From NCBI GenBank assembly GCA_022813865.1, contig JALDZX010000005.1, forward strand, positions 620,001-684,000: a DNA stretch of 64,000 bases, given 5' to 3'. Numbering within the stretch: the first letter of the stretch is position 1; the number at the start of each line of letters is the position of its first letter. Shown here piece by piece: positions 31,215-42,882 of this stretch. Made by a program: the position numbers and the translations under genes. Below the pieces are notes generated by a model that saw only the letters and a program-made list of their open reading frames with translations, was not told where the DNA came from and ran no database searches. Source of the DNA: Xylographa opegraphella. Its lineage: Eukaryota.

Positions 31215-34200
31215 TCACCCCCCTCCACTAATCACCCTCACATGACTCAACTCCACATCGACACTATTCCTCAGCACATGATGGCTCACCCAGAAGCTAG
31301 CCGTATTAGTCGCCCCAGCATCGGGCGGATTGCGCACCCACTCGAAACTCTTCCGCCCGTCCTCGAACAAGGTGACCAGGCCCGGGCTCACGAGGATCAT
31401 GACGACGACGTAGGGCCCGCCGACGCGCAGGTTCGTCCAGGAGGAGAGGCCGACAAACTCCCAGCCGTCGTAGAACGTCCACTTGGGATTCGGGTCGGGC
31501 AGGATGCGGAAGATGAGGCCGGCGATGATAGCGACCTTGGACTCGTACTGCCCCGACGCGTTGATGCGGAAGCGGTACTGCACCGCGCAGGTGGGGGGCA
31601 GGGGAGCGCTGAGGTTGGTGACGGCGGTGTAGTTATCGCTGGGAGTAAGGTGTTAGTGGGAATTGGAGGAGGGTAGAAGAGGGGGGAGGGATAGGGGAAG
31701 CACGTACACTGTGAGGGAAGGAGTATAGAAGCGCAGGGAGTCGGCGGTGTATGTTGCGGGTATAGCGCCGGTACTGTTGGCGATGTGGAAGAAAGCGGTG
31801 TTGGCTTGCTGGTTGAATTGGTTCAAAATCACCTCCGAAGCCTGGGACCTGAGTTCTGGGAAGTCGCTTTGCAGATGGAAAGCAACGGGGCAGGTGCGGA
31901 AGCCCTTGAGGTCACCGTCGAACACACCCTCACGTTCCCAGACGGTGCAAGAGAGATCGAAAGCGCCGGCGGTATTGATGGCGGTGGGCACCATAGAGAC
32001 GACCTGTTTGCCATCTTCGTAGATGAAAATATTGGTAGGTGTCACGTGGAAGAGGATGTCGTGCCAGACGCCATTCGCGGTAATGGCAGAGACCGTTTGA
32101 GTTTGCCAGTTGCCATTGTTCCAGAGGCACCAATTGACGACGTTGAGGTTGTATCTTAGAGCCAGATTATAATTGGGTTGGGGATTCGTGATGGAGGGGG
32201 CAAGAAACTCGGCGAGGGTGGTGGCTGTCAGAGTATTCCAGCGCATGCTGTAGGCTAAAGTAAACCCTTTGCCTATATCGATCGAGGGGAGACTCCAGCC
32301 CATATTAGCGAACTGACCCCGACCGCTATTCGCGTCGCTCTTGAGTATCTTGAGCATGCCGTTCTGCACACTAAGTTGGATGCCGGTGGTAGATCCTGAA
32401 ATAGAAAACTCTTGCGCTGGTGTACCGGGAGTGTACGAAGTAAGTTGGTTCGAAGCATCGTTAACAACAAGGTTGTAGTGATCGCCACTGGTCGGCTGTA
32501 CTGTATGCCCATTGAACGTTATATAGACTGGCCAAGTGCCACCGACCTGGGCCACGACGTTCACATTGAACTCTCCCAAAACAGTTGAGTCAACCGAGGT
32601 CTGAAATTGTGGTGTTCCGCCACTAACACTACCAACTGATGTCACGACCAGCTGAGTGACTTGCAAGGGTTCCGGTGGCGAGATGAGCACAGAGAACGAC
32701 CCAGCAATGGCCGGCGACTTCTTCGCCGCCCCAAACCAGTCGAGCCCTTGAACAGTGACTGTTGACGCTGGTTGCGTGTTCGTGACTACCACTGGAAGTG
32801 GAGAGCCGCATATTGGAAGAAAATTTGACAGCAGGCGGAGCCGGTATGCCCCCAAGGGGAGTGATGATAGCAAAGTATACTTAGCATTAGTCCGACCTAC
32901 CTGGCTGGCGTCGGCTGCGAACTGCACATCAACAAAATCCAGCGAAGAGGATATCTGAGGGTATACGATCGCAGACTTTATCATTGCAGTATCGTTGGCT
33001 GCCACTCCGAGCTTTTTTGCCTGAAGCACAAAATCGGCTTCGAACGTTAGTCCCGCTGCTCCAATTCCTAAGCCACTCGCACTGTAGTCGAAGTCTGCCA
33101 TCGGCAGCGTAAATGGCGAGCCTTTGATTTGCGTGGCAGCTATGGTAACGTTCATAGTAAAGGTTGTGCTGGGTGGTTGAGGTTGCGGTACATAAGTGAT
33201 AGTATACGATCCGTCCTGATTGTCTGTCACATTTAGAAGCAAGAAAGGCCAGTTCTGGACACCAGTAATGCTGGAGCTTGCCATTACTCTATCTCCACCA
33301 ATCCATTTCCGATTATTGTTGGCGTCTACCGCAAGGACAGTCAGAGTCGAAACATTGTTAAGGGCATAAGAGTCCCAGTTCGCGACTGAATTTGCTGCTA
33401 CAGTTGGGCTTGTAGGTCTGATAACGAAGGGACTTTCCGATATCTCAGTCGTACCAACAGTTATTCTGATGAGATCAGATGTGACGGTAGAGGCGGGAGT
33501 GGTGTACGAGACTCGCAGTCCTTGACCTCGAAGTACTTTCGTAATGTTTGTGCCATGTTTCATGGAGATCGAAATTTGGTCCAGACTTGGCAGACCGGTC
33601 GTGATGACATTACCGTACTGATCCAATGCTACTATATCAAAATGTGAGACTGTAGATGGTGTTGAACTTAGGGAGAGTCCTGGGCCGTATAACTTCGCTT
33701 TTGTTGGTACTGGTGCTGCAGCGACTGTAAATGATATCGGACTTCCATTTATGTTGACAGAGTCATCAGTTGCAGAAGTCGCCTTGATCTGGAAATCTCC
33801 AGCACTATCGATATTCAACTGGACGAAAGACGTGCCATCACCATGATCTGTAAGATTCAATATCTGAGCAATACCGCCGACTTTTTGAAGAGTTAACTTG
33901 AAGCTACCAGCAGTGGCGGTGTCCATCCATAATCCTCCAGACGTATCCTTTGCAGTGATGAAAACCTTTCCCTGGAGACTTGGCGAAGATCCAGCATAAT
34001 ACGGCGGTGCAGACATAGAGAGCGTAGACAACGGGACAGACATAGTCATGACATTTGGTCCAGAGGTAAGGAAGATAGGACATTCTGGTAGCGAAGCATC
34101 GTTTATGAAAATTTTTATAGAATAGGTGACACTCGTTGAGGTAGTCGGTCGTATGTAGGTGACAATGTAGTGGTCAGCTGTTGTTCCAGCAGACGAAGCT

Positions 34201-40567: not shown

Positions 40568-42882
40568 ATGACTGCGCGTGCTGCCTTCACTCTCACCTTC
40601 AATGATCCTACGGTGACCACTGCAATTGGTAGTTCGCTTGCAACGACTGTCTGCGGTTCTCTCCTGTCCCTGCAATGCATGCTTCCACTATCTGACTTGT
40701 TTTCTGACTTTCGTTGTCGATGTAGCCATGGGCCCAGGTGATTATGGTAGATGCCGATTACGGTGATTGCCACATCATCGACTTCTGCAGCGTGGACAAA
40801 GACACTGGCACAGTGGTGTATCCCACCACCGAAAGATCCTACCGCCGCTTTCTCATCGATACCGGTCCAGATTCTCGACAGCTGCATGGCATGGTCAACA
40901 TCTTCAAAACTTACGGCCAGCCGAGTTTCAAGCCCACGGCCACTGGTGCCGTCGAGACAGCCGTCCTTGGGGACGAGGCGAGGGTACAGTTGGTCGAAGT
41001 AAGTCTGCCTTGATTGGTATCGAAGAGTGACAGCATTGTAAAGACGTTTCCATATGCAGTTCTCCCACATGGATTTCGATCACTGCGGCCAAGGTATGTC
41101 TGTTGCTTTTCCGTATTCGATTTACTTCCTGCGAGTGAAAATGAATCAAGCACGAATCACGTGCAAATATCTGGCCTACGAATTGGATAGATGACCAATA
41201 AAGGAAGGGACAAGCGCTAATGACGGCCTTCATTTTTGCAGCCTATAATCTCATACACACCCTGGCAACAGATACTGTGCTTCAGCAGAGCTTTTTCAAC
41301 ACCACAGCGCTGTATCATGAGCTTCCGGCGATTGTTCCAAAGTTCCATCTCAGTCTCATGTACGACATCTCGAGTAAGTAGAGAGGTTCACTGCAGCAAA
41401 GAATCTGTTGACCATCGAAGCAACCCCGCCGGCCTTCTACGTCAATTGTCAAGAGACACTACCAGTCAGCACCAGCACCAGCATAAGGCTTGGGGACAGT
41501 TCATGGGTGGATCGAATGAAGTCCGCTGGGTTCAGAATTCAGTACAAATATGTGACCCAGCCCATGACGACCATGCGATCAACACCGCCAACGGATCTTG
41601 CTGTTCCTGCCCCTATATCCATCCGCCTGCGAAGCCGCAAGTCGTTTGCCTACCAAATAATCAAAAGCTCAGACGTGGCAACCACCTATAACGCCGTCCT
41701 CGTCACCTGCGTTGTTTCCTTGAGACGCTTTGTTGCGAGCAACAAGTCAACTGCAAACACCTGGGTCGGAGTAGAGATGAACGATCCTTCCATAGCCAGA
41801 AAATTTGTTTTCCGTGCAGTCTACGGACTCACTTTCGCCAATCGTACCGTCCCCACCGATGTAGCAGTCCTAGCCGTACCAGTCCCGCCAGTCATTCTCA
41901 CGGGCGCTTTGAGCAGCGTCAGGGACTTTGTACGCATCAGGGATGAAATCAAGAAGCTGCCGGTAATCCCAGCAGTCGGGACCGTCCCTGCTCACACTCT
42001 GATAACACCTGTTGAGGTGAAAGCCATCAAGGATAAGTTTGCCATTGATGAAAAGTATTTTTCCTTCAACATAATGGGCCCCAATCGGCGGCTCTATGAT
42101 GCCCTGATCGAGTCTTCAATGGTAGCTCTCTACAAAGCCGCGACCCAAACCGCCGCCGCGCCGGTGGGTAACTACGACATCACCAACCGAGCCAGCATCA
42201 TCAGCTTGTTCACACGATACAGAGTCCTCGTTGACGACACTAAGGTATCTCCTACAACTCGGCTTCTCGCCCCCGGAATTTACTTACAGTCCTCCAGGTC
42301 CCCGTTTTCCGCATGCTCTTCACCGGCGACGCATACGATCGCCAATGCAACATCCAAAACACCGTGCAAGGCTTTCTCGAAACCAAAGTCGTCACCCAAG
42401 TCGGCGTGCTTAAAATCCCGCACCACGGATCCGCACGCACTACCGAAGCTGGCTTCTACAGCGCCATCCGTGCCCAAGTGTACCTGATCTCCGCGCAGCA
42501 GTCCAAGCACGGCTCGCCCAGCCTTTCGATGCTGCAAGCGATAGCTAGAAGTTTAAAGCAAACGCCAGCCAGCTTCGTCGTCGGCACGCGGCCGTACTTG
42601 CTGTTCTTCAGCGACCCAGCGGCGTTGGACGATATTGATAGTCTGCACAGCAATGTGTATAGGTTGTTGCATGGGCCGTACAAGCCGAATAGGGACCCCA
42701 CGACCGGGAAGACGATTTATAACTATAGGTGTTTTCGACTGCGAAAGAGTTTCTCCCCCAATGCGGTGTCGGGGAGGATTTTGTTCGGGGGTGATACGAA
42801 TGATGAGCTTACGGTACAATTCACTGTCACGACCAATGACCTCGATACGGATATGACGAAGGACTGGGTAGAGATGGTGTAG
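40568..42882 (+). CDS. ComEC/Rec2-type metallo-beta-lactamase-fold hydrolase with large internal insertion (about 630-645 aa), 6 exons
   Basis: Ordered motifs VDADYGDCHII, FLIDTGP, FSHMDFDH (on a 34-nt exon, 41060-41093), NRASII, MLFTGDA, LKIPHHGS, YLISA..HGSP. Introns 40999-41059, 41094-41241, 41374-41420 and 42245-42297 keep frame. The first exon and its donor are uncertain (acceptor at 40725). Confidence 0.8.

Follow-up and report, generated by a model that had tools for sequence, protein, structure and literature searches.

We analysed a 64,000-nucleotide stretch of the genome of Xylographa opegraphella (NCBI GenBank assembly GCA_022813865.1, contig JALDZX010000005.1, positions 620,001 to 684,000 of the forward strand; hereafter the window, in whose own numbering all coordinates are given), and within it two neighbouring genes, one for an enzyme with a metallo-beta-lactamase (MBL) fold and one for a giant beta-rich protein. 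Our most useful finding places the MBL in a fungal branch of a bacterial family of gated pro-nucleases, a branch in which the stretch between two conserved motifs is greatly enlarged; we found no paper describing such a branch. Xylographa species are lichen-forming fungi, and the locus consists of two genuine accessory genes of such a fungus, lying among housekeeping genes. What each of the two genes is can be said much more firmly than how they relate to each other.

The MBL gene and its bacterial relatives

Reading of the sequence together with comparison to homologues gave an MBL gene that runs from an ATG at 40568 to a stop codon at 42880-42882 with no internal stop. Its first exon, with a GTGACC donor, is tentative. 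The acceptor at 40725 was fixed because a block conserved in the family, P-x-A-Q-(I/V)-x-(V/M)-V-D-A, starts there: exon 2 opens with PWAQVIMVDA, which matches P-L-A-Q-I-T-V-V-D-A of the family. The features of the gene are as follows.

40568..42882, plus strand: MBL gene, 6 exons and 5 introns, 630 amino acids (aa), exon 1 tentative
40568-40612 (tentative), 40726-40998, 41060-41093, 41242-41373, 41421-42244 and 42298-42882, plus strand: exons of the MBL gene
41066..41083, plus strand: HMDFDH metal-binding motif (HxDxDH form, as in ComEC), aligned to THPDADH of 9ic4 through the family profile
41242..42200, plus strand: family-specific stretch of about 300 aa between HxDxDH (aa 109) and NRAS (aa 417)
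42322..42432, plus strand: TGD (42322-42330) and HHGS (42421-42432) motifs, both in exon 6

Along the spliced product the motifs follow one another as DADYGD (aa 24), HMDFDH (aa 109), NRAS (aa 417), TGD (aa 445) and HHGS (aa 478), and the TGD and HH.S columns are invariant in 13 members of the MBL family. An earlier note, made from the letters of this DNA alone, had described an MBL enzyme with HxDxDH, TGD and HHGS motifs, had called it ComEC-type, and had suggested, as one possibility, an effector in antagonism or defence. Each part of that description was borne out: all three motifs were located in the spliced product; the profile of the 13-member family, compared with the PDB, picked the ComEC chains 9ic4, 9vc6 and 30bt as its sole significant matches (E-values of 7.5e-7 to 1.1e-5); and exon 6 of the window gene matched the PADLOC profiles LmuA (PDLC03854, E 1.8e-13), Avs1a (5.1e-11) and RTasMBL (1.6e-8). 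The same three profiles were matched by all six fungal MBL homologues that we scanned. The general Pfam family Lactamase_B (cut-off 22.7 bits) was reached in only two of these six homologues, at the cut-off in P0010 and above it in P0012, and the single exons of the window MBL gave no Pfam match.

The likeness to the C-terminal MBL domain of ComEC, whose chains are the nearest solved structures by profile, lies in two regions, those of the THPDADH-type (HxDxDH) and KVPHHGS-type motifs, which align in the comparison. Only these two motif regions align, however, and the fungal protein differs from ComEC in having no competence channel domain, in its large insert and in a C-terminal extension of about 150 aa.

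To find non-fungal relatives, contigs from metagenomes and from prokaryote genomes were scanned with the MBL alignment; each scan yielded over 330 relatives. The best 80 from each were retained, making 160 loci in total, and only bacterial loci were obtained. The fungal MBL profile matches 161 open reading frames (ORFs) in these 160 loci, and the best of them are stand-alone proteins of about 370-440 aa. The ten top-scoring bacterial ORFs all match the LmuA-MBL profile, with E-values of 9.5e-51 to 1.5e-64, over their whole length in nine cases and over the C-terminal half only in one 703-aa ORF.

The surroundings of these bacterial genes were characterised through 71 plus-strand ORFs, out of 269 neighbouring ORFs of at least 200 aa, which covered 27 of the 48 loci with a stand-alone MBL. 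In 15 of the 27 loci a protease gene adjoins the MBL. An S8 subtilase lies directly upstream in nine of them (L005, L020, L030, L044, L057, L070, L080, L082 and L086), where a subtilase of about 600-700 aa ends 3-90 bases before the LmuA-type MBL, and a C14 caspase lies downstream in one (L085), just after the MBL, in what looks like a canu-like arrangement. Eight loci without S8 or C14 were also considered: their downstream ORF is an M4 thermolysin-type peptidase in five and has no Pfam match in three. The five M4 loci (L003, L007, L014, L023 and L031), all from metagenomes, are those of the top five bacterial MBLs by score against the fungal profile, and three of them (L007, L023 and L031) have a gene with a rhodanese domain upstream. 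These M4-MBL loci may represent the published nuclease-protease pairs in a form that uses a metalloprotease.

The layout of a protease gene beside a bacterial MBL matches the pro-nuclease arrangement described in the main text of Tuck et al. 2025 (PMC12799240). According to that text, Hachiman, AVAST, Lamassu and DRT systems repeatedly place a competence-nuclease-like MBL next to a trypsin-like protease, and the partner proteases comprise trypsin-like enzymes, caspases and "other diverse families" (PMC12799240). The MBL is there a gated proenzyme in which two insertions block the active site until the partner protease cuts, and the 42-kDa HamM, cut at I118 and I218, becomes a potent DNase which does not cut RNA (PMC12799240). 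The gated pro-nucleases covered by that text are HamM of nuclease-protease Hachiman, the MBLs of Avs1, Lamassu and DRT, and CanC of canu (PMC12799240).

The fungal MBL resembles these bacterial proteins in several ways. They are its best profile matches; it has a ComEC-like fold with HxDxDH, TGD and HHGS motifs; it is a separate gene beside a large partner gene; and, like HamM, it carries extra sequence between HxDxDH and TGD, the interval in which the HamM cleavage sites I118 and I218 reported in the main text of PMC12799240 also fall. On the other hand, it is eukaryotic, has five introns, and is 630 aa long against about 370-440 aa. Its stretch between HxDxDH and NRAS measures about 300 aa, whereas that of the closest bacterial relatives measures about 76 aa; its activity and gating are putative; and it has no adjoining protease gene or protease domain.

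The place of the fungal sequences was assessed in a tree of 94 rows and 128 core columns, built with a quick method, in which 24 fungal rows (the window MBL included) stand beside 70 rows from the bacterial scans. The 24 fungal rows and one metagenome row form a single starred clade, with a value of 97 in the Shimodaira-Hasegawa-like approximate likelihood ratio test (SH-aLRT), on a long branch from the rest. Within it, the window MBL groups with three other Xylographa sequences and then with Pseudogymnoascus and Fusarium tjaetaba in a first sub-clade; a second sub-clade unites Aspergillus nanangensis, Loxospora, Lophiostoma and a different gene of X. bjoerkii; and a third holds Paramyrothecium and many paralogues of Orbilia/Arthrobotrys. 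The metagenome row, L040, is a contig of 1,030 bases whose branch inside the fungal clade is very long; its source may be a fungus sampled in the metagenome and not a bacterium.

A practical observation concerns the existing Xylographa records, whose annotated MBL models look incomplete: P0002 is without the small exon that carries HxDxDH, and P0003 and P0004 begin inside the insert, at 440 and 437 aa. Users of these three records would therefore miss the metal-binding site.

Architecture of the giant protein

The neighbour of the MBL gene is read from the opposite strand. Its open frames, at 31653-39697, are broken by three in-frame stops and one frame change, and each interruption falls in a short GT..AG intron with a branch-point-like motif. 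The five introns are all GT..AG (78, 78, 72, 59 and 69 nucleotides), and splicing gives a coding sequence of 8,079 nucleotides with a single terminal stop, i.e. 2,692 aa. The gene and its parts are listed below.

31215..39649, minus strand: giant gene, 6 exons and 5 introns, 2,692 aa
39649-39271, 39192-36982, 36903-35288, 35215-34298, 34238-31708 and 31638-31215, minus strand: exons of the giant gene
35503..39649, minus strand: beta-meander region of about 1,330 aa, made of repeated units of about six long beta-strands followed by helices
35177..35347, minus strand: hydrophobic Gly/Ala-rich helix, candidate membrane anchor or hairpin, aa 1383-1415, spanning intron 3
33108..33350, minus strand: best-scoring filamin/ABP280 repeat (Pfam PF00630), exon 5, E 3.6e-19
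31896..32282, minus strand: possible concanavalin A (ConA)-like domain, sub-threshold match to Laminin_G_3 (PF13385)

The spliced product aligns end to end with the Xylographa proteins P0025, P0026 and P0027 at 79-84% identity; with P0025, an annotated protein of X. pallens, identity is 83.9% over 2,692 columns with 2 gap openings. It is also collinear over its full length with the distant homologues P0029 (35.1%) and P0033 (28.9%). The intact, spliced gene for about 2,690 aa that the earlier note had read from the sequence is thus confirmed by these end-to-end alignments. Its description of the product as a beta-repeat, filamin and lectin protein held in two of its three terms: filamin is backed by the match at E 3.6e-19 and the beta repeats by hhalign and AlphaFold2, and the lectin part is left with a weak, sub-threshold match.

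Filamin repeats are the only Pfam family above the cut-off in the giant protein, with PF00630 scoring 69.8 bits in exon 5 against a cut-off of 26.9 and a partial match of 28.4 bits at the end of exon 4; P0025 has three stretches matching Filamin (96.7 bits). They belong to an immunoglobulin (Ig)-like region at about aa 1450-2290, which has space for about 6-8 filamin repeats, and the PDB chains matched by the profile of the giant family are all of Ig-like type, filamin-type chains included, and comprise those of gelation factor (1wlh and 1qfh). PF13385 near the C-terminus scores 18.9 bits (E 0.0018), under its cut-off of 27.6, and exon 6 gives no match to it. Thus the giant protein shares PF00630 repeats and PDB matches with filamin and ABP-120 (gelation factor), but unlike them it has no actin-binding CH domains, and its repeats come after a 1,330-aa beta-meander and a hydrophobic helix and before a possible ConA-like end.

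The hydrophobic helix lies between the meander and the Ig-like region. The top Kyte-Doolittle 19-mer of the whole protein (2.26) is at aa 1383, inside a Gly/Ala-rich stretch of about 33 residues, and the protein-wide maximum falls at this same position in eight of ten full-length homologues. Judged from sequence, the position of the helix suggests a membrane anchor between a cytosolic beta-sheet platform on one side and the Ig rod with its lectin-like part on the other. No signal-like sequence was seen at the N-terminus. Residues 1419-1450, between the helix and the Ig region, form a strongly acidic low-complexity linker rich in Asp, Ser and Asn.

The first 1,400 or so residues match no Pfam family, either in the window exons or in the family members scanned. 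Internal repeats were recognised there by hhalign (best probability 97.2%, E 3.6e-11), and an AlphaFold2 model of exon 2 (736 aa; predicted local distance difference test, pLDDT, 79.5; predicted template modelling score, pTM, 0.67) consists of four units, each with about six long strands followed by helices. A fold search with this model gave nothing above noise (Foldseek template modelling (TM) score of about 0.12; best VIA Z 6.4). A smaller model of two units (270 aa, pLDDT 77.2) resembles segments of beta-barrel walls and the sheets of lipovitellin at Z 9-11: SprA (6h3i_A) was matched at Z 11.0 with a root-mean-square deviation (rmsd) of 4.4 over 220 of the 270 residues, TonB-dependent transporters and porins at Z of about 9.4-10.3, and lipovitellin (1lsh_B) at Z 9.1 with an rmsd of 3.8 over 141 of 174 residues; LptD and TamA are also among the matches. 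In Foldseek, barrels lead for the two-unit model with TM scores of 0.3-0.42, and none reaches an E-value of 0.001 or better. Among the 50 entries listed for either model there is no chain of VPS13, ATG2 or TamB.

The likeness of the model to SprA (6h3i), TonB-dependent transporters, porins and lipovitellin (1lsh_B) appears to consist in long antiparallel meander strands of similar curvature. Unlike these proteins, the giant is fungal, bears no sequence relation to them, has helical segments after every six strands and has no signal peptide. The fold matches seem to reflect no kinship but an arrangement in common, that of a long, curved sheet of up-and-down strands, and the N-terminal 1,330 aa appear, from the models, to be without a convincing structural relative.

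How widespread is the family? Searched exhaustively by phmmer with exon 2 (736 aa), a set of 1,835,955,588 representatives yielded 36 proteins. Filamin is present in 6 of the 18 matches scanned, and these six are among the seven matches longer than 1,900 aa; filamin being kept in six of those seven, the full architecture of the giant would be old. A shorter form, of about 1,000-1,200 aa, is confined to the N-terminal part. We also observed a short sub-family of about 980-1,110 aa (P0036-P0038, P0041, P0047, P0052 and P0059) which has the N-terminal beta-meander region only, with a common C-terminal motif and without filamin repeats, so the beta module also occurs alone.

The earlier note had further pointed to giant proteins of the DUF6603 type, sometimes found beside or fused to such MBL domains, and this lead found no support. 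DUF6603 (PF20248) gave no Pfam match in the window exons or in P0025, nor in 16 members of the giant family at E-values up to 10, and hhalign of the giant family against nine actinobacterial DUF6603 proteins (nine genes in 6 of 301 Actinomycetota genomes) gave probabilities of at most 0.8%. In a protein atlas, DUF6603 is the nearest named cluster to the giant, at 0.83, under the atlas lead level of 0.9. As for the suggested neighbourhood, none of the nine DUF6603 loci has such an MBL within about 4-9 kb on each side. Fusion of the two families fared no better: reciprocal profile searches found none between the 23 MBL and 39 giant-family proteins that we collected. The same is true of pairing in bacteria, where tblastn on 80 of the MBL loci and two profiles run against the 9,951 ORFs of all 160 gave no relative of the giant within 10 kb. 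Our literature search on DUF6603 and on the giant family (filamin repeat, ascomycete, concanavalin) found no paper.

The locus and the relation between the two genes

Two intact, spliced and divergently transcribed genes sit between a HIS6-type gene and a ketopantoate reductase gene.

39650..40567, no strand: spacer between the two start codons, 918 bp
29304..30299, plus strand: flanking HIS6-type gene (Pfam His_biosynth)
43193..44365, minus strand: flanking ketopantoate reductase gene (Pfam ApbA and ApbA_C)

This is the arrangement that had been read from the sequence at the outset, as a head-to-head pair with a shared spacer of about 0.9 kb between HIS6 and ketopantoate reductase: the gene models place the divergent starts 918 bp apart, and Pfam agrees on both flanks. 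A repeat search of the spacer returned short repeats of chance size only. By Pfam, the remaining genes of the window are housekeeping ones (an M20 peptidase, DUF747, a KCH channel, a transketolase-type E1 subunit, COX15, a class II tRNA synthetase, HlyIII, a 2OG oxygenase, a nucleotidyl transferase and Rap1), the giant gene is the only other accessory gene at the MBL locus, and the GC content of the pair matches that of the surrounding window. A side observation concerns positions 50001-52000, where GC rises up to 0.61 over the 2OG-Fe(II) oxygenase gene (50977-52203, minus strand) and long open frames occur on both strands.

The best matches of both genes are hypothetical Xylographa proteins, at 87-91% identity for exon 6 of the MBL gene and 79-83% for exon 2 of the giant gene. 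In X. soralifera the homologues of the two genes carry consecutive locus tags (MMC17_003386/003387) on one contig of 253,933 bp, and in X. trunciseda they are MMC11_000636/000637 on one contig of 236,346 bp. Adjacency of the pair is therefore kept inside the genus, in two other species, and it is at that level only that it is demonstrated. Synteny within a genus at 80-90% identity would be expected whether or not the two genes shared a function.

The explanation that we favour for the MBL is that the plus-strand gene encodes a ComEC-type MBL-fold phosphodiesterase, probably of a purely fungal clade whose nearest relatives would be the stand-alone MBL nucleases of bacterial antiviral systems. 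By analogy with those relatives we infer that the fungal MBL is a latent DNase and that the roughly 300 aa separating its HxDxDH motif from TGD form an enlarged regulatory gate; such an enzyme could serve as the executioner of a pathway of conflict or cell death, for example in defence or allorecognition. The giant, for its part, has what may be the layout of a membrane-anchored scaffold or receptor: a beta-meander wall, a hydrophobic helix probably tying it to a membrane, a filamin-type Ig rod and possibly a lectin-like end. Several findings weigh against parts of this explanation. Pfam revealed no partner protease for the window MBL in the giant, in P0025 or in the adjoining genes, and the sole peptidase of the window is the M20 enzyme at 539-2110, about 38 kb from the MBL gene; with no protease gene or domain accompanying it, the fungal MBL lacks the partner that defines the bacterial gated nucleases. 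The tree is short (128 columns, a quick search) and came with a warning that long branches meet. With Asp and Glu among its residues, the hydrophobic helix of the giant may not be membrane-spanning; the two-unit model yields a flat list of fold matches, with 67 chains at Z of at least 8; and the 36 matches of the giant family look fungal by composition only.

Whether the two proteins work together is a separate question, and here we lean, by a modest preference, towards two independent neighbours that share a promoter region, which we regard as likelier than a two-component system. In the latter, which we consider possible but doubtful, the giant would take over from the protease-fused sensor of bacteria as a sensor or scaffold that holds or releases the latent MBL nuclease, its membrane-anchored Ig rod and lectin-like head lying on one side of the membrane and its beta-sheet platform on the opposite side. 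Such a system would fit the head-to-head genes with their shared 918-bp spacer, the rarity and patchiness of both families, whose two accessory genes adjoin among core genes, and their adjacency in at least two other Xylographa species. The two proteins have also diverged alike from their nearest homologues outside Xylographa (35% for the giant, 31-32% for the MBL). Moreover, the bacterial MBL clade is rarely alone, having a protease neighbour in 15 of the 27 loci scanned, so a partner is to be expected, and the giant is the only candidate of an accessory nature at the locus. However, a protease is what one would expect as the partner, and Pfam shows no protease or other catalytic domain in the giant exons or in P0025; the sole conserved adjacency is the within-genus synteny that would be expected regardless of function; and no fusion occurs among the 62 proteins collected. 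The MBL family, with its three sub-clades and many Orbilia paralogues, is broader and richer in paralogues than the giant family appears to be, and this breadth fits poorly with the giant as an obligate partner. A more specific version of cooperation, in which fungi inherited a bacterial gated pro-nuclease and rewired it, strikes us as unlikely: in Xylographa and its clade-A relatives the giant membrane-anchored protein would control the latent DNase, its Ig rod and lectin-like head sensing a non-self cue and its beta-meander platform sequestering or releasing the nuclease.

Two further readings were considered, and we give little credence to either. The earlier note had raised the idea of a lipid-channel protein paired with a phospholipid hydrolase. 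In this lipid system the giant would form a beta-groove, VPS13/TamB-like or lipovitellin-like, that channels or binds lipid, and the MBL would hydrolyse its cargo, a phospholipid or another phosphodiester. The six-strand-plus-helix repeats of the giant presumably resemble repeating beta-groove units in outline, 1lsh_B was matched at Z 9.1, and LptD and TamA are in the same list; yet that flat list is headed by ordinary outer-membrane barrels (Z 9.4-11.0), and VPS13, ATG2 and TamB are absent from the 50 entries listed. On the enzyme side, the solved relatives of the MBL are nuclease domains of ComEC, and the activity-tested ones, as far as the main text of PMC12799240 describes them, are DNases that do not cut RNA. 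We hold the lipid idea to be very improbable. Even less probable, in our view, is that the MBL gene or the whole pair was acquired recently from bacteria by horizontal transfer. The closest non-fungal relatives of the MBL are indeed bacterial and its distribution among fungi is patchy. Against this, each gene has five spliceosomal introns, the GC content of the pair is that of its surroundings, the giant has no relative beside the 160 bacterial MBL loci and 36 matches that look fungal by composition, and the fungal MBLs form one diversified clade on a long branch away from the bacterial rows; one such clade, together with five introns per gene, does not indicate a recent bacterial origin. Taken with the GC content and the lack of a bacterial giant, these features mean that any transfer from bacteria would be ancient.

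Implications for fungal conflict systems

Bacterial antiviral systems are increasingly recognised as a source of parts of eukaryotic immunity, and fungi offer a precedent for a latent executioner encoded beside its activator in HET-Q1/HET-Q2 of Podospora, a gene pair of a gasdermin and a protease. The same logic of executioner beside activator would apply to the Xylographa locus if the giant and the MBL were coupled. The two cases differ in that the executioner of the Podospora pair is a pore former and its neighbour a protease, whereas the giant is not a protease.

Protease-gated MBL nucleases were described in 2025, and fungi are absent from the main text of that description, in which the word stem occurs 0 times (PMC12799240); our literature search likewise turned up no paper on ComEC-type MBLs of fungi. 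The gated-nuclease family would reach into eukaryotes through a monophyletic fungal branch that carries introns and whose stretch at the gating position is enlarged four-fold. The giant protein, a rare and uncharacterised architecture, is worth a structure by itself. If the two proteins do cooperate, a link which is only a hypothesis, the locus would define a new type of system; and if the rewiring of a bacterial pro-nuclease set out above were true, it would be a new eukaryotic two-gene module of immunity or allorecognition, built on a previously unseen beta-repeat architecture. The fungal MBL branch would also provide a specific enzyme to consider as a nuclease executioner for the conflict systems of fungi.

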